Below the pieces are notes generated by a model. The model saw nothing but the letters and a program-made list of their open reading frames with translations. It had not been told where the DNA came from and ran no database searches. From the NCBI RefSeq assembly GCF_024223415.1, contig NZ_CP100500.1: a DNA stretch of 64,000 bases; one strand, 5' to 3'. Source of the stretch: Escherichia coli (GTDB lineage: Bacteria > Pseudomonadota > Gammaproteobacteria > Enterobacterales > Enterobacteriaceae). A program made the position numbers and the translations under genes. Below, piece by piece: positions 1,367 to 8,223 of the stretch (its first letter is position 1; each line of letters opens with the position of its first letter).

Positions 1367-1406
1367 CCAGAACGCGAGCGCGCGCCGGATGACGCACGCA
1401 TAACGC

Positions 1407-1892
1407 TTAGCGGGAAGCGCCAACCGTAAGGCTGGCAATGATTTTTTCGGAGAGTGAGAGAGATTCGCGATGATTAAGACCAAGAGCAGCACAAGCTTTA
1501 TTGCGCGCCGGGTTGTCCATGCATTCAAGCACCGGAGAGTCCTGCTTCTCAATTTCCACCAGTCGCGCCAGCAACACCTCCGTGCTGAGACCGTCGCTTT
1601 CAGTAATCAGGACGTTATAGCGATGAGCCTGTTCTTTTGCAGCCTGAGCGCGTCGCCCAAATTTGCAGGCGATATTGCAGCCACTAAGCACAGCCACGAT
1701 ACCACCCAGCAACCAACTGAAATTGCTGCCTGCAAACACAGTAGCCCCAGACGTAAGGATGACAGCATTAATCACCGTATCCATACGGCGGTTAAACACC
1801 TCCGAAATATGTTCAATCCAGTAACTGTTCCAGAGACGAAACATGACCTCGTGTCGCCGTTCGGCATGATTTTCAGTTGGTTGTCTGTTCAT
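1407..1892 (-). CDS. small predicted two-transmembrane-helix membrane protein (161 aa), opposite strand to the early operon
   Basis: GGAGG Shine-Dalgarno upstream of ATG; central hydrophobic hairpin VINAVILTSGATVFAG...WLLGGIVAVLSGCNIA. Confidence 0.5.
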   Translation of the reverse strand: MNRQPTENHAERRHEVMFRLWNSYWIEHISEVFNRRMDTVINAVILTSGATVFAGSNFSWLLGGIVAVLSGCNIACKFGRRAQAAKEQAHRYNVLITESDGLSTEVLLARLVEIEKQDSPVLECMDNPARNKACAALGLNHRESLSLSEKIIASLTVGASR

Positions 1893-2135
1893 TGCGGTTT
1901 AACCCTCCTCATCATCTCGCCCCTGCCCTTTTTCAGGCGCGGGAGCCGGTTGCCGTGGCACATGAAATTTATCGCTATCAGACATTTATTTTTTCCCGTG
2001 TGTTGTTGAACAAAGTGCCCGCACAGTTTTGACGGAACGGCGGGCGCTTCAAGCGTAACACACCCTTCTTTTCCGGTTGAAGGCGAAAAAAACCGGACAG
2101 CTACCCGACACAAACCAGACCAGCGGAGAACTGCC

Positions 2136-2690
2136 ATGTACGCACTTAAACCTATGGGGATACCAGGCAAAGCCCCGGCGCATGTGAAAGCCTGGACACA
2201 GCAGGAAGATGATTTGCTGATCACCCTGTACCCGCAGCACACAGCACGAGATATCGCCGGACGTCTGGGGCGCAGCTACGAAGGAGTTTGCGGCCGCATT
2301 TCTCGTCTGCGTGAACAGGGCAGGATTGGCATCAAGCAGCAAAGACTAAGCGATGAGATGATCGCCACGCTCATCAGGAACCGCCACACCAGGTCCCTCA
2401 AGGAACTGGCACACATGGCGAAAGTTTCGACACGCACGGTAACCAACCGATTGAGGGCGCTGGGCTACAGCCTGATCAAATGCGGGGATCTGCATAAAAA
2501 CACCGTCTACAGCGACCGCATCGTTGAGATTATCAGACAGTTACACGACGAGGAGGGCCTGACGTTCAGGGAAATCGCACAGCGCCTTAGCCACGAACTA
2601 CAGCCGAACCCTACCCCGACACTGGCTCAACGTCTCTACTGGCGGCGCACAGCATCCGACGCCGTATTCCGTGAACTGTTACCAGATTGA
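2136..2690 (+). CDS. hypothetical prophage early protein (184 aa), helix-rich and basic
   Basis: ORF with GGAG Shine-Dalgarno; no family recognised. Confidence 0.5.
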   Translation: MYALKPMGIPGKAPAHVKAWTQQEDDLLITLYPQHTARDIAGRLGRSYEGVCGRISRLREQGRIGIKQQRLSDEMIATLIRNRHTRSLKELAHMAKVSTRTVTNRLRALGYSLIKCGDLHKNTVYSDRIVEIIRQLHDEEGLTFREIAQRLSHELQPNPTPTLAQRLYWRRTASDAVFRELLPD

Positions 2691-3013
2691 GCAATCACCA
2701 TGTACACACAAAAAAACCGCTTGCAACAACAAACCGGAACAGGGTACGCTTCCCATGCACCTCATAAAACGGGTGTCGGGATTCTCAACCTGCTGACAAA
2801 CGAAGCGCACAACCGCGCCAGCGGTTTTTTTGTGCGTACTGTATTGCCACGTCTTTTTCGCATCAGAATTATGGTGGGGCGTACGGGGCCGACTTCGGTC
2901 GGGCCGGTTTCTTCGTTTGCCGGTGTTGAGAACCCCGTACGTCTCGCCACCCCGAGATTCTCAACTCTGGTTGGTGAGTATCCAAAAACTCACAAACGAA
3001 GAGGCCAAACACC

Positions 3014-3232
3014 ATGGCAAACCGCAAACAGCGCCGCGCTATCGCTGCGCAGCGTCACATCCAGACCGAAATCAACCGCAGACTCTTCCGCGCCCACAAC
3101 ATCGCGCGAATCATGCACGCCAACATGCTGCATGAACGCAGTAACGCGTTATCAAACCTCTATTCCGCTTCCGTTTTCAGCTATCTGGCGGACGACCTGC
3201 GCGAGCTGCAAGACCTCATTAACCAGCACTGA
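3014..3232 (+). CDS. hypothetical small basic protein (72 aa)
   Basis: ORF with Shine-Dalgarno GAAGAGG upstream. Confidence 0.35.
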   Translation: MANRKQRRAIAAQRHIQTEINRRLFRAHNIARIMHANMLHERSNALSNLYSASVFSYLADDLRELQDLINQH

Positions 3233-3304
3233 TAAACAACCCGAAGCCATCCTGCGCCCGTTCGCGGGAGGCTTCCGCACATCTGTAGTCGGGAGGATTG
3301 CGCC

Positions 3305-3673
3305 ATGATTCTGGCTGACGATTTTCTGGAGTACCTGAACAACACCGAGCGCGACCTGTACGCGCGCGTTCTCACCCGTTACGAGAAATACAAACTTTCG
3401 CTGCCAGAACATCAACTCCGCGAAGGCGATATCGACATTGAAGGGCGCTACATCGTCAGGCACCTCATAGCGGGCTACGGCATCTGGCGTGTCACCGGAC
3501 GTGAGCATTCATTGCTGACCATCTGCCAGAGTCCGTCCGGCGTGATAACGGAGATCGTCGCTGATAGTCTGCGACTCACCCATCACAGCGCCACCCCGGA
3601 AGAAACGCTGGCAGAAACCCAGCGTCTGTGTCGCGTCATTGCCAACGCCGCCCTCCGCGCAGACAGGAGGTAA
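3305..3673 (+). CDS. hypothetical prophage early protein (122 aa) immediately upstream of replication gene
   Basis: GGGAGG Shine-Dalgarno; ends 3 nt before gene A start. Confidence 0.5.
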   Translation: MILADDFLEYLNNTERDLYARVLTRYEKYKLSLPEHQLREGDIDIEGRYIVRHLIAGYGIWRVTGREHSLLTICQSPSGVITEIVADSLRLTHHSATPEETLAETQRLCRVIANAALRADRR

Positions 3674-3676
3674 GCG

Positions 3677-6166
3677 ATGGAGTTCGTCAGAGACTGGCAA
3701 AAACCGCGCCCCGCTATCGGGCGCGAAGGCTTACCCGTACCTGAAACCGCACTGGATACCATCCTGAAGTGTTACCGCGCGGACGAAGAGCGCGCCCTGA
3801 ACGCTGAAGAGCAGGGTCATCCGCTTGCGGGCACAACCATCGGTAACGCGATCGACAAGTGGGAAGGCGCACAGGAGCGCCAGGAAGAGGCCATCACGCT
3901 CACACAGGAAGCGAAGAGACGCCCACCCACCCTCATTGAGGAAACCCTCAAAGAGCTGGACACCCTGCCAAAGTGGTTGAGGCTGCCACTGATTAAGCAC
4001 CTGAACTTCTTAAGGCGCAAACAGGAGGACGAACAGCAGAAAGGCAAACGCGGCAAGGACACCCGCAAATACGAGCGCTTCGTACAGAACGGGATCCCCG
4101 CACGTCTTTGCCGTATTCGTGAGATTAACGATCGCTTTGCACCGTTGAGTTTTCAGGCCGCTGCCATGCGCGAGAGTCTGGAAGAGTTAATCACACTGCC
4201 GAACCTGAGCCGTGAACGCATCCAGAAAATAGCCGTACTGCTTGCCAGCGCCGTTAAAATGCATCTTGCCGACGCAATGGACAAGGCCCGCGAAATAACA
4301 GGGAACGACAAAGACGACAACCTGAACAACTGGCTGATTGCCTACCAGTATATTGGTCGCCGTGTCCTGAAGCTGGGGATCACCCCACCATACTGGAGCG
4401 CCCTTGAACTCCGTCCCGACCGCAGAAGCCCCCCGGACCTGACACTGGTACCGGGCGCTGTTTTGCGCCTGAACGACGCCGAATGGTGGAATAAAAAACT
4501 TCGCCAGATGCACGACGTCTGGCGTGAGGAACTTTTACGTGCAGCGGGCCTTGTATCCCGCCAGACCTCCATTTATGTGAGCCGGGAAGCACTGGCAGAC
4601 TTCCGCGAGAAACAGGCCCGTACCCGCGATTTTCTCAAAGCGCACGACGTGGAGAACGAAGACGGCGAACGCATCAGCCTGGAAGATATCTACTACACCA
4701 GTACATCCAACCCGCATAACCGCCGCAACGAGATGATGGCGTGCGTCAAGGGAATGGAGCTTATCGCACAGGAACGTGGCGACGTGGCCTTCTTCGTCAC
4801 GGTCACAGCCCCGTCTCGTTTTCACAGCGTCACCGACGCCGGTACCCTTAACCCGAAATACAAAGGCACAACAGTAAAAGACGCCAGCGACTATCTGGTT
4901 TATAACTTCTTCGCCTCCGCCCGCAAACTCATCAAAAAAGAGAAGCGGGGCTGGTACGGCATTCGCACCGTTGAGCCTCACCACGACGGCACGCCCCACT
5001 GGCACATGCTGGTATTCACAAGCCCCGAGAACGAAGCGCGCATCACGGAAATCATGTGCAATGCCGCCATCCGTGAAGACCGTGCAGAGCTGGGCGACGA
5101 CATTACCCCGCGCTTCAAGTGCGAGAAGATAGACCCCGAAAAAGGTACGCCAACCAGCTACATCGCCACCTACATCGGCAAAGGCATTGACGCCGCCGCA
5201 TTCGGCGACACGGATCCCAAAACAGGCAAACCGCCCGTTGACCACGAAAGCGGAAAACCTATGGCGGACACCGTGGAAAACGCCGTCGCCTGGGCACGCC
5301 TGCATCGCATTCGCCAGTTCCAGTTCTTTGGCCTTCCCTCACGTCAGGTGTGGCGCGAGTTCCGCCGCCTTGCCGGACAAATGGCACGCAACCCGAAGGG
5401 GCCGCAGGCACTGACCAACCCCAAAGCCGACGCTCTGCTGGCCGCCGCCGACGTGGGGTGTTTTGCCAGCTACATTATGCATCAGGGCGGCGTGCTCATT
5501 CCCCGCAGTGAATATCTGGCCCGCACGGCCTACGTCACCGCAGAAGAGCCGAACAACTACGGCGAGTTCCCCGACCGTATTTACGGTGTACGGATGCCGG
5601 AACTGGGCGATGAGTTCACGTTATGTACCCACCCGGAAGAGTGGAAACTCGTCAGAAAAGAACCGGAATCAGACGACCGCACGGGCGAGGGTTTTGACCT
5701 TCAGGGCGACCCCGTCGCCCCTTGGACTCGTGGCAATAACTGTCACCCTGACGAAAAAACAACCAACAACAGCACACAAACCGGACAGTCAGAGTGGGCA
5801 AAACTGCCCCCCTTACCCCCATCGTCGGACGGTTTTGTGAGCTGGTTTAAGTCGCTTAAGAGGCCGGACAGGAAAAAACTACAAAGATTGCTCAAAAAAC
5901 GCACCGAAGAGAGTCGCCAGAACGCCAGCGGCGGCACCGACACACCCACCGACACCATTAACCTGGGCGTTGTGCTGCCGGAACTGCCGGAAATCGTGCA
6001 AGTCCGCCGCGATCTGGAAGCGCTGGGCGCGGACTTCCCCGAAGCAATGGCCCATTCCGTCTTTATGGGTGCCCGCGTTCGTCTGGGTAACGGTCGCACC
6101 GTTCACCGCGACGAGCAGACCGGGCGCATCACCGTCACCAGTCTGCAACCGGAGGCGAAACCATGA
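3677..6166 (+). CDS. rolling-circle replication initiator, P2 gpA-like (829 aa)
   Basis: Large ORF with AGGAGG Shine-Dalgarno; contains the HWHMLVF histidine-hydrophobic motif typical of P2 A-type endonucleases. Confidence 0.85.
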   Translation: MEFVRDWQKPRPAIGREGLPVPETALDTILKCYRADEERALNAEEQGHPLAGTTIGNAIDKWEGAQERQEEAITLTQEAKRRPPTLIEETLKELDTLPKWLRLPLIKHLNFLRRKQEDEQQKGKRGKDTRKYERFVQNGIPARLCRIREINDRFAPLSFQAAAMRESLEELITLPNLSRERIQKIAVLLASAVKMHLADAMDKAREITGNDKDDNLNNWLIAYQYIGRRVLKLGITPPYWSALELRPDRRSPPDLTLVPGAVLRLNDAEWWNKKLRQMHDVWREELLRAAGLVSRQTSIYVSREALADFREKQARTRDFLKAHDVENEDGERISLEDIYYTSTSNPHNRRNEMMACVKGMELIAQERGDVAFFVTVTAPSRFHSVTDAGTLNPKYKGTTVKDASDYLVYNFFASARKLIKKEKRGWYGIRTVEPHHDGTPHWHMLVFTSPENEARITEIMCNAAIREDRAELGDDITPRFKCEKIDPEKGTPTSYIATYIGKGIDAAAFGDTDPKTGKPPVDHESGKPMADTVENAVAWARLHRIRQFQFFGLPSRQVWREFRRLAGQMARNPKGPQALTNPKADALLAAADVGCFASYIMHQGGVLIPRSEYLARTAYVTAEEPNNYGEFPDRIYGVRMPELGDEFTLCTHPEEWKLVRKEPESDDRTGEGFDLQGDPVAPWTRGNNCHPDEKTTNNSTQTGQSEWAKLPPLPPSSDGFVSWFKSLKRPDRKKLQRLLKKRTEESRQNASGGTDTPTDTINLGVVLPELPEIVQVRRDLEALGADFPEAMAHSVFMGARVRLGNGRTVHRDEQTGRITVTSLQPEAKP

Positions 6167-6709: not shown

Positions 6710-7084
6710 ATGAATAAACAGGATTTTGGACTTGATACCCTTTTGAGTATGCATGGTTACCAGCATCACATGGATAACGGGTACTGGTGGAAAATTAAGG
6801 CTTACCGGGTAAGTCCAAGTCCGTTCAGACCTCACGGGATACGCTACAATCTGACGTTACATGACCGCTACAATTCGCGTGTGTTTGGTATGGACAACGC
6901 ACATGGAATAAAACCGCCAAAGAAGGGAAGATTTACAGGAAAGTTAACTGTTTATGATCATGTGCACCGTACCCCGGTGGATAAAGGTTATCCCTATGAG
7001 TTTGTATCCGCAGAACAATTGTTATCTGATTTCTTTGATAACGTTGATCGGCTCATTAACGAAGTTACAAAGGGGAAAGCATGA
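6710..7084 (+). CDS. uncharacterised His-rich small protein (124 aa), first gene of cargo operon
   Basis: ORF follows an AT-rich promoter-like region with direct repeats (6640-6705); stop overlaps downstream start; no recognisable family. Confidence 0.6.
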   Translation: MNKQDFGLDTLLSMHGYQHHMDNGYWWKIKAYRVSPSPFRPHGIRYNLTLHDRYNSRVFGMDNAHGIKPPKKGRFTGKLTVYDHVHRTPVDKGYPYEFVSAEQLLSDFFDNVDRLINEVTKGKA

Positions 7085-7467
7085 AAGCCCGCATCGGGAT
7101 CATCCCGGAAAAAGTCCTGCGTCAGCGCCTGATTGAAATTGCCAAGGGGGAGCGGAAACCACACCCCGACGAGCCAAGGGTATGGTTTTCATCCATCAAT
7201 GCGGCGGGTCAGGCGCTGAGCAATGAAAATATCTCCCTTCTTCGTCTTATGGATGAGGAGAAACCGCAGACCATGACCGAACTTGCGGAGTTATCCGGCA
7301 GAAAACTGAGTAACCTGTCTGTAACCCTGAAAATGCTGAGCAGCTACGGTTTTGTCAGTCTGGAAAAGAAAGGAAATACCGTACACCCGAAGGCACTTTT
7401 TACCGATTTTGAAATCATCGTTGATCCGTCCGTCGGTTCAGTACATCGCGCCACCGCCCGCCCCTGA
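7081..7467 (+). CDS. uncharacterised protein with predicted winged helix-turn-helix (128 aa), second gene of cargo operon
   Basis: ATGA overlap with upstream ORF; segment TMTELAELSGRKLSNLSVTLKMLSSYGFVSLEK resembles MarR/ArsR-type wHTH; followed by hairpin terminator. Confidence 0.6.
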   Translation: MKARIGIIPEKVLRQRLIEIAKGERKPHPDEPRVWFSSINAAGQALSNENISLLRLMDEEKPQTMTELAELSGRKLSNLSVTLKMLSSYGFVSLEKKGNTVHPKALFTDFEIIVDPSVGSVHRATARP

Positions 7468-7480
7468 AGTGTGCAATAAA

Positions 7481-7505
7481 CAGCCCCGGTCGGGGCTGTT
7501 TTTTA
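7481..7505. terminator. bidirectional intrinsic terminator between convergent cargo operons
   Basis: GC hairpin CAGCCCCGGTCGGGGCTG flanked by T-run on the + strand and A/T-run on the - strand. Confidence 0.6.
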
Positions 7506-7877
7506 TTCCAGAATCAGCTGTTCAGGTGTGCAGCCGTACAGTCTGGCAAGGCGCTCAATATTTGCCCTGCGCGGGCGTTCTGTTCTTTCGAATTCGGACA
7601 CGGTAGCCTGCCTGATACCCAGCGCATCCGCCACCTGCTTTTGCGTCATTCCGCGATAGATTCGCCACGCCGCCTGCATGGTGCAGCCACGTTCCGAGAG
7701 GATGTTGACCACCTCGTTGGGATACAGCGTATCAGGCGATGCACTCGGTTCGTTCTGGACGTCCTCGTAGAGTTCGTCAAGGTCGCTGTCTCCTGCCAGT
7801 TTTTCAAACAACGCCACTGGCAGAATGACGGATACCCTGTTACCCGCACCGTCAGTAATAAACTGAATCTGACTCAT
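7503..7877 (-). CDS. XRE-family HTH protein, HigA-like antitoxin candidate (124 aa)
   Basis: AGGAGG Shine-Dalgarno 6 nt upstream; C-terminal HTH MTQKQVADALGIRQATVSEFE; downstream of a RelE/ParE-like ORF. Confidence 0.65.
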   Translation of the reverse strand: MSQIQFITDGAGNRVSVILPVALFEKLAGDSDLDELYEDVQNEPSASPDTLYPNEVVNILSERGCTMQAAWRIYRGMTQKQVADALGIRQATVSEFERTERPRRANIERLARLYGCTPEQLILE

Positions 7878-7950
7878 TTGCCCCTCCTGCTAAACATCGG
7901 TTTATTTTTTAATTTGCTGCCGGTGATAAAAAACGGCGGGTCGCCCCGCC

Positions 7951-8223
7951 TTAGTATGTTGTCGAGGTTCTCCGCTGAATACGGAGGATCCTGATAACCA
8001 CTATCTGCCCTCCCTCAATCGTGAACCTGACACGGTAATGATTTACCCTGAGTCTGTACTCCCCGCCCGAGTCAGTGAGCTTTTTAATATCCAGATTCTG
8101 GAACTTCGGATAGCCATAAAGCGCGTTAACTTTCTCGCGTAAGGATTTCTGATCCCTCGCTGGCAAAACCCGTAAATCTTTGATTGCCCGAGGGGTCCAC
8201 ATGATTTCAGTCGTCATAAACAC
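7951..8223 (-). CDS. RelE/ParE-superfamily toxin-like protein (about 83-90 aa; start at 8223, 8217 or 8202)
   Basis: C-terminal EYRLRVNHYRVRFTIEGGQIVVIRILRIQRR matches the RelE/ParE pattern; toxin-first (HigB/HigA-like) order. Confidence 0.6.
   Translation of the reverse strand: MFMTTEIMWTPRAIKDLRVLPARDQKSLREKVNALYGYPKFQNLDIKKLTDSGGEYRLRVNHYRVRFTIEGGQIVVIRILRIQRRTSTTY

Follow-up and report, generated by a model that had tools for sequence, protein, structure and literature searches.

A minus-strand SLATT-like gene and its upstream micro-ORF within the early operon of a P2-like Escherichia coli prophage

The locus and its coding strand

This study concerns a gene on the minus strand at positions 1407–1892 of a 64,000-nucleotide (nt) stretch of Escherichia coli DNA (RefSeq assembly GCF_024223415.1, contig NZ_CP100500.1), the whole of which is called the window below. 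The window begins within a P2-like E. coli prophage of the P88/Xuanwuvirus type, and its first 4 kb are 98.9% identical to a prophage of E. coli strain CS5L that is inserted between glsA/ybaT/cueR and copA. In the CS5L prophage the same minus-strand gene is annotated by RefSeq and the Prokaryotic Genome Annotation Pipeline (PGAP) as WP_032353759.1, 'hypothetical protein'. The original prediction, made from the letters alone, had placed an opposite-strand gene of 161 amino acids among plus-strand early genes; we found this to be correct, with an ATG start. It is very probably a real SLATT-like membrane-protein gene within an accessory cassette of two genes. The features of the locus are as follows.

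1407–1892, minus strand: SLATT-like gene, ATG start, 161 amino acids (open reading frame (ORF), PGAP gene, phrog_6315 match, selection and AlphaFold2 model)
1659–1781, minus strand: codons of the hydrophobic hairpin, residues ~38–78, with predicted transmembrane segments TM1 (~38–55) and TM2 (~60–78) and an uncharged turn (~56–59)
1899–1985, minus strand: micro-ORF of 28 amino acids (MSDSDKFHVPRQPAPAPEKGQGRDDEEG), first gene of the cassette, its stop 6 nt before the SLATT-like ATG
1903–1910, minus strand: Shine-Dalgarno sequence GAGGAGGG, 11–18 nt upstream of the SLATT-like ATG, inside the codons of the micro-ORF's acidic tail
2012–2051, minus strand: conserved stem-loop between the next feature and the ribosome-binding site of the micro-ORF
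2052–2061, minus strand: invariant motif GTGnTAnnnT, here GTGTTACGCT, which fits an extended -10 element for sigma-70 (TGnTAnnnT); candidate cassette promoter
2064–2096, minus strand: interleaved inverted repeats X (2091–2096 with 2073–2078) and Y (2079–2083 with 2064–2068), directly upstream of the motif
1470–2009, plus strand: antisense open frame of 179 codons, codon-aligned with the SLATT-like gene, that follows the early-operon direction and spans the cassette
482–739, 736–861, 942–1157, 1154–1366, 2136–2690, 3014–3232 and 3305–3673, all plus strand: flanking early genes
3677–6166, plus strand: gene A replication endonuclease (gpA), early operon

Selection was measured separately for each frame, as the ratio of non-synonymous to synonymous differences (pN/pS), across a set of 24 distinct homologues taken from prophages and viral contigs; the homologous loci were gathered with a 20-sequence alignment as the query. 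The sense frame of 1407–1892 had a pN/pS of 0.18, the antisense frame that shares its third positions 0.51, and the four other frames ~1.0–1.4. Diversity at the three codon positions of the sense frame was 0.40/0.30/0.62, so that third positions varied most. The minus-strand ORF is a genuine gene under purifying selection.

The long open frame on the plus strand raises the opposite reading, namely that the true early gene is 1470–2009, with the minus-strand ORF as no more than its shadow. It follows the direction of the operon, and it was open over 101–163 codons in the 15 P2-like lineages, crossing both cassette genes (at least 139 codons in 14 of the 15), with stop codons specifically avoided. 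Annotators chose it in Yersinia phage vB_YenM_42.18, where gp08 (221 amino acids; 4812–5477 of our locus L001, equivalent to 2950–3615 of NC_070913.1) is this antisense frame, and the SLATT-like gene and micro-ORF on the other strand are left unannotated. Yet the codon-aligned antisense frame had a pN/pS of 1.03 against 0.18 for the minus frame, and the identity of synonymous codons between diverged lineages was in no surplus (an excess of 0.035 against 0.07 for gpA). The frame is also nonexistent in lambdoid phages, whose homologues carry 6–19 antisense-frame stops each. Its product had no match in PHROG or Pfam, whereas the minus-strand product folds confidently, matches PHROG and SLATT models and is the one picked by PGAP. 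The minus-strand gene therefore encodes the conserved protein, given the contrast in pN/pS, the lack of excess synonymous identity and the lambdoid antisense stops; the same three lines rule out the plus-strand ORF as the sole gene, and the shadow reading deserves next to no credence. The vB_YenM_42.18 gp08 call is probably a mis-call of the strand, and the open antisense frame explains wrong-strand calls in some phage annotations.

The openness of the antisense frame is nonetheless a property of the P2-like copies. In these lineages (loci L001, L005, L009, L011, L016–L021 and L027–L034), whose synonymous sites are mostly saturated, TTA, CTA and TCA made up 13 of 439 leucine and serine codons (3.0%), compared with 376 of 2462 (15.3%) in neighbouring early genes (Fisher p = 2e-15). 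These three are precisely the codons whose reverse complements are stops. As a control, A-ending codons for valine, threonine, alanine, proline and glycine were equally frequent in the two sets (20.3% and 20.2%, p = 0.96), and the rare codons ATA and AGA/CGA were not avoided. Homologues in lambdoid contexts used TTA, CTA or TCA at 60 of 164 such codons, and one atypical P2-like locus (L013) at 8 of 39. Because stops are avoided where no protein is conserved, the frame is kept open while its amino-acid sequence is left free; translation of it is quite possible, though no conserved protein would result.

Early transcripts of lambdoid phages are protected by N antitermination, which would account for the signature being missing from the lambdoid homologues. 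Our best guess, put forward as a hypothesis, is that the early transcript of the P2-like phages is translated across the inverted cassette and thereby escapes Rho-dependent polarity before gene A. The late operons of P2 are subject to Rho polarity, which is suppressed by Psu of P4 (PMC3821671). That an inverted gene in an operon is held free of antisense stops, as the codon counts indicate, gives a directly testable lead on how essential operons of phages accommodate counter-oriented cargo.

The upstream micro-ORF and non-coding block

The original prediction gave the gene a strong Shine-Dalgarno sequence of its own. The sequence GAGGAGGG is present, but it does not belong to a free leader, since the last codons of an overlooked micro-ORF (GAT GAT GAG GAG GGT TAA) contain it; a purine-rich tail or an equivalent Shine-Dalgarno sequence was present in all P2-like lineages. 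The SLATT-like gene is the distal gene of a pair. Of 28 loci examined, lambdoid contexts included, 27 have a homologous micro-ORF of 26–52 codons that ends 3–16 nt before the gene; in one more locus (L021) the micro-ORF is frameshifted. PGAP leaves the micro-ORF unannotated in the CS5L prophage, and its product matched nothing in PHROG or Pfam.

What is conserved in the micro-ORF is a core rich in histidine or basic residues and proline, with the form (D)FH.(P/L)(R/H)KPAPxPE in the P2-like phages. The N-terminal part differs in length between copies, and the tail is acidic in the P2-like phages and basic in the lambdoid ones; distant lambdoid examples end in ...QAPPPPPPKQKK and ...RPVPPPKPQRKS. 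When eight lineages were pooled over 19 gap-free codons, pS was 0.70 (saturated) and pN 0.18, giving a pN/pS of 0.26, while other frames across the micro-ORF exceeded 1.2. The window and L005 copies differ by seven synonymous and no non-synonymous changes in 19 codons. Judged by this codon pattern, the micro-ORF is a translated, constrained element, and the layout points to translational coupling with the SLATT-like gene, on which it would act either as a peptide or through its own translation. We also considered whether the proline-codon region sequesters the Shine-Dalgarno sequence or AUG of the SLATT-like gene, and rejected this since no such structure is conserved across lineages.

A small upstream gene coupled to a downstream membrane-protein gene as a conserved pair is the classic layout of a toxin-antitoxin (TA) module. 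The cassette could accordingly be read as an addiction system, in which a SLATT-like membrane toxin and a labile micro-ORF antitoxin would serve prophage stabilisation or selfish persistence and have no anti-phage role. That the cassette is highly mobile among unrelated phage backbones, and that the cargo of the same prophage includes other TA-like pairs (RelE/HTH, 7503–8223), is in keeping with this. The change of the peptide tail from acidic to basic, with the proline-rich core alone conserved, would be unusual for a binding antitoxin, and a modelled fusion of the two products yielded no confident complex (described below). The cassette was moreover seen in phages only, at positions typical of lysogenic-conversion or exclusion genes. 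We consider a pure addiction module unlikely; TA and abortive-infection roles would in any case be compatible.

Upstream of the micro-ORF, the motif GTGnTAnnnT was found in all 15 of the P2-type upstream regions searched. It lies 60–69 nt before the micro-ORF ATG in 13 of these and at 39 nt in L027; for L021, with its frameshifted micro-ORF, the distance was taken to the gene start instead. The GTG, TA and final T columns were invariant in an alignment of 14 sequences. The arms of both inverted repeats next to the motif covary between lineages, those of X as TCCGGTT/AACCGGA, GTGCCGGGT/GCCCGGCGC and GTGCCGGACG/CGTCCGGCGT, and those of Y as CCTTC/GAAGG, CCATG/CATGG, CCCTG/CAGGG and CCACG/CGTGG. 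A stem-finding script gave the X arms but recovered Y inconsistently; the Y arms were picked out by eye from the alignment. The repeats are candidates for a terminator or insulator, an operator or a leader switch.

The stem-loop between the motif and the micro-ORF has a stem of 6–13 base pairs and a loop of 15–22 nt in 12 of 14 lineages. Its arms covary as well (GCCCGC/GCGGGC, GTTATGCCGC/GCGGCATAAC, TTACGCCC/GGGCGTAA, TTTTTCGCCC/GGGCGAAAAA and GTTTGCGCCCG/CGGGCGCAAAC). Loops of differing length put the arms out of register in MAFFT alignments, so that RNAalifold found no pairs in any of the three built for the upstream block; the stems were hence tabulated sequence by sequence. A single-sequence fold of the upstream region had a z-score of -0.42, and Rfam had no match in the cassette or leader. 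We found no LexA box (CTGT-N8-ACAG) within the window and no convincing terminator after the SLATT-like gene in a terminator scan. The block at 2012–2096 is a candidate promoter, insulator or leader.

Predicted fold and similarity to SLATT proteins

The 161-residue protein matched phrog_6315 (E 2e-49), a PHROG family of unknown function, and no Pfam family; on this query alone, Pfam, PADLOC and NCBIfam gave nothing above threshold. An exhaustive HMMER search gathered 95 homologue clusters at 50% identity, colinear with one another, nearly all 150–170 residues long and extending down to ~21% identity. Two profile searches of a large protein database returned family members only, and literature searches by accession, PHROG identifier and gene description found no account of the family in the papers covered. 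The features conserved in the alignment are an N-terminal YSYxLE...R helix, two hydrophobic segments, and the motifs QA..Y, DS and A..RA.

With the family alignment as input, AlphaFold2 produced an all-helical model with a predicted local distance difference test score (pLDDT) of 94.7 and a predicted template modelling score (pTM) of 0.87. A long helix (residues 8–52) enters the first hydrophobic segment and is followed, after a five-residue turn, by a return helix (58–75/77–100) and three more helices (103–114, 122–135 and 146–155). Residues ~38–79 are hydrophobic and lie between charged helices; positions 43–66 are free of K, R, D and E, and KFGRR comes directly after the hydrophobic stretch. 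The Kyte-Doolittle maximum in the hairpin of the query was 1.74. Averaged over 81 homologues, the two segments had hydropathies of 1.30 and 1.55, the turn was uncharged, and the 14 residues after TM2 carried a net charge of +1.6.

These values and the confident model agree with the original prediction of a small two-TM protein with a hydrophobic hairpin between charged helices. From the hydropathy of both segments, the uncharged turn and the positive flank after TM2, we infer insertion in the membrane as a two-TM hairpin with both ends, and so both soluble parts, in the cytoplasm (N-in/C-in). About 115 of the 161 residues would then form a conserved cytoplasmic bundle. A two-TM hairpin core with flanking helices is also the predicted plan of SLATT proteins, to which the original prediction had likened the gene product.

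The likeness extends to the sequence. In separate scans of the 81 aligned members, 42 matched NCBIfam SLATT_4 (NF033632; best E 8.6e-7), 15 SLATT_1 (NF033634) and 3 SLATT_fungal, all below threshold, whereas unrelated families each matched at most 4 of the 81. The alignments were colinear, family residues ~30–98 corresponding to model positions ~35–100 and, in one case, 30–126 to 29–133. Searching the model against the predicted viral structures of BFVD with Foldseek, we found that annotated SLATT proteins of giant viruses dominate the top 15 matches, at ranks 1, 3, 5, 10, 11 and 13–15, and that more follow (probability 0.96–1.0, TMq 0.37–0.67); for the best of these the probability was ~1.0 and TMq 0.57–0.67.

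Distribution, proposed role and known systems

The cassette is ~0.6 kb long, was found in phages and prophages only, and runs against its flanking genes in every context seen. These contexts are the interior of the P2-like early operon (in phages of Escherichia, Citrobacter, Salmonella, Pantoea and Yersinia), the cI/pL side of lambdoid phages, and the interval between Q and holin in a lambdoid phage. The lambdoid cI/pL side is the usual seat of exclusion genes. Among 5426 complete E. coli genomes, 33 carry the cassette, compared with 1098 that have related early-region DNA, and tblastn found homologues in 3 of 50,697 phage records. Phage P88 (L043, NC_026014.1) has no cassette at the matching site. 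The gene showed no homology to a conserved core early gene of P2 or 186, its match being to phrog_6315, and it is rare among P2-like prophages; such homology would have told against the original prediction, which suggested a lysogen-expressed moron. The view of the gene as an accessory moron is supported: most related phages lack it, its site is variable, and it recurs, always counter-oriented, in unrelated lambdoid backbones.

Because so few related phages carry it, the gene is not needed for lytic growth. This bears on a further possibility, that the protein has a lytic-cycle role of its own, either in holin- or antiholin-like timing or as a depolarising factor that aids replication or blocks superinfection, and is not expressed in the lysogen. 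Its size and two TM segments would suit such a role, and in one lambdoid relative it adjoins a holin-lysozyme cassette. The gene is nevertheless transcribed against the surrounding early or late operon wherever it was seen, and against the holin in that same relative, and the window prophage has a separate lysis cassette elsewhere. Since, in addition, few related phages have the gene, we regard a lytic role as very improbable.

The site itself lies 5' of a block composed of isrK, C4 and a derepression gene, and it holds the cassette in the window (1367–2700) and genes for an Ead/Ea22-like protein, a membrane protein and a lipoprotein in P88 (3573–5221). The comparison suggests a hotspot for cargo within the early operon, separate from the tin/old hotspot already known. 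Between the upstream region of the cassette and the isrK/C4 block is a plus-strand gene (2136–2690) for a 184-residue protein with several helix-turn-helix (HTH) motifs that matches phrog_323, 'transcriptional regulator, D5-like'. We considered this gene as a partner of the cassette and rejected it, since it is absent from most cassette-bearing loci; it is lineage-specific, and a different ORF of 205 amino acids takes its place in L008.

Two plus-strand RNAs scored above the Rfam gathering score, the Hfq-binding RNA isrK (2757–2831, 59.8 bits) and the C4 antisense RNA (2867–2954, 79.2 bits), both directly upstream of the 'derepression protein' gene (3014–3232). Their placement suggests that, in this prophage, an antirepressor encoded before gene A is under RNA control of the P1/Gifsy type. 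Additional cargo was observed between gene A and the portal gene, in the classical variable region of P2: a DUF6516 (TumE-like) gene with a winged-HTH regulator (6710–7467, plus strand) and a pair of HTH antitoxin and RelE-family toxin (7503–8223, minus strand), which are further accessory TA-like modules.

As to what the cassette does, we favour an anti-phage function in the lysogen, by abortive infection or exclusion, through a SLATT-like pore, and put its probability at 0.45–0.5, even odds or slightly less. The constant opposition to lytic transcription is what leads us to propose expression in the lysogen and silencing on induction. In the lysogen, with the early promoter repressed, the cassette would be transcribed from a promoter of its own. 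The SLATT-like protein would sit closed in the membrane under the control of the micro-ORF, exerted by its peptide as a gate or antitoxin or by its translation as a proline-rich sensor. When another phage infects, the protein would open or oligomerise and depolarise the membrane, and the infection would be aborted or excluded. Once the resident prophage turned lytic, convergent early transcription across the cassette would silence it.

Several results weigh against this reading. The query scored 12.7 bits against SLATT_4 (E 0.085), the inspected members scored 12.8–23 bits, and none of the 81 reached the curated cutoff of 55 bits (41 bits for SLATT_1). Of Pfam's SLATT models only SLATT_fungal was matched, in two members, and PADLOC-DB v2 searched with the 161-residue query returned no family at E <= 1. 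The Foldseek matches to SLATT proteins had modest E-values (8e-3 to 8e-2), and a search against solved structures, among which no SLATT structure is found, gave nothing specific. The hairpin is only moderately hydrophobic (maximum 1.74) and its segments are short, which leaves room for a re-entrant or peripheral arrangement. In more than 12 distinct contexts examined, there was no CD-NTase/SMODS, SLOG, TIR or reverse transcriptase (RT) neighbour, and so no sensor partner of the cyclase, TIR or RT kind. An AlphaFold2 model of the micro-ORF product joined to the protein through (GGGGS)5 had a mean pLDDT of 71.6, at most 56 in the peptide, and no confident docking. No canonical promoter for the cassette emerged from a generic promoter scan, which did not flag the motif at 2052–2061 either, and the stem-loop starts 1–3 nt past the putative -10 element, a poor fit for a transcript start there.

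Many colinear sub-threshold matches with none at the cutoff indicate remote homology rather than membership. The likeness to SLATT put forward in the original prediction thus stands as a distant relationship, supported by the SLATT_4 matches of about half the members and by the Foldseek results, and fails as formal membership and in the neighbourhood expected of SLATT effectors. The family is best described as a divergent, stand-alone SLATT-like lineage that, by curated thresholds, is not part of SLATT_4.

The missing signalling partner, which activation of a suicide pore would need, also favours an alternative, that of non-lethal superinfection exclusion. Here the protein would block DNA entry or receptor function, as do T4 Imm, P22 SieA and HK97 gp15, and would neither form a pore nor kill. 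A small predicted inner-membrane hairpin protein encoded by a prophage would suit this, and the lambdoid copies adjoin cI, in the classical position of exclusion genes. On the other side, the affinities of fold and sequence are to SLATT effectors and not to the Sie or Imm families, the large conserved cytoplasmic bundle looks more like part of a regulated effector than of a plug, and the obligate upstream micro-ORF resembles a toxin-control layout. Plain exclusion seems to us as improbable as a pure addiction module, and a SLATT-like pore acting in the lysogen remains the reading we prefer.

A more specific version of the preferred reading is that the cassette is a self-contained two-gene anti-phage system not described before, with the micro-ORF as sensor or gate of a stand-alone SLATT-like pore that has no nucleotide-signalling or RT partner, combined with antisense translation that shields transcription through to gene A. 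We regard this full combination as doubtful. If true, the avoidance of antisense stops would record selection, in the P2-like phages that host the cassette, for 'translation shielding' of an inverted gene. The cassette would also be a compact candidate for a new prophage defence or exclusion module in Enterobacteriaceae.

Among known systems, lambda RexB, P22 SieB and SieA, and T4 Imm are likewise small inner-membrane proteins of a resident phage that stop other phages, and exclusion genes share the position in the lambdoid immunity region; the window protein differs in having no sequence or family match to them. RexB, with its four TM segments, depends on RexA. The micro-ORF, for its part, recalls proline-rich or arrest leader peptides, such as mgtP of the Salmonella mgtCBR leader and SecM, and small type II antitoxins, in that a short ORF ends just before the gene it presumably regulates. 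As in such leaders, a proline-rich core lies 8–15 codons before the stop and the N-terminus is variable. Unlike them, the micro-ORF has no conserved structure that sequesters the Shine-Dalgarno sequence, and PPP is not universal, the window copy having PAPAP.

The closest comparison is with SLATT effectors, which are highly mobile, predicted pore-forming proteins of defence systems with two to three TM segments (bioRxiv 10.1101/2021.12.02.470933); SLATT_4 (PF18186) is the effector family of type I cyclic-oligonucleotide-based anti-phage signalling systems (CBASS; PMC11381338). The window family shares with them the two-TM hairpin with flanking helices, a length near ~150–190 residues, mobility and an association with conflict systems, as well as the best fold matches and, in half of its members, colinear matches over the hairpin and the next helix. 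It differs in falling below the curated cutoffs, which makes it at most a new, divergent SLATT-like family, in lacking a SMODS, SLOG, TIR or RT neighbour, in always following a proline-rich micro-ORF, and in residing in temperate phages.

DRT10/UG17, an RT-SLATT system of P4-like satellites and prophages, offers a parallel within E. coli mobile elements, with a SLATT-type effector (SLATT-5) at a variable cargo site. Its defence requires the SLATT effector, which is toxic once deregulated, and how SLATT effectors open is described as an open question (bioRxiv 10.64898/2026.04.29.721553). DRT10 belongs to a different SLATT subfamily and needs a reverse transcriptase and a structured non-coding RNA, neither of which is at the window locus, where the conserved upstream stem-loops have no Rfam counterpart. 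SLATT proteins are widespread, and work on them to date has treated them as accessories of signalling or reverse-transcriptase systems; set beside these, a SLATT-like protein with a peptide of ~30 residues as its sole constant companion would be a minimal setting in which to study how such a pore is gated.

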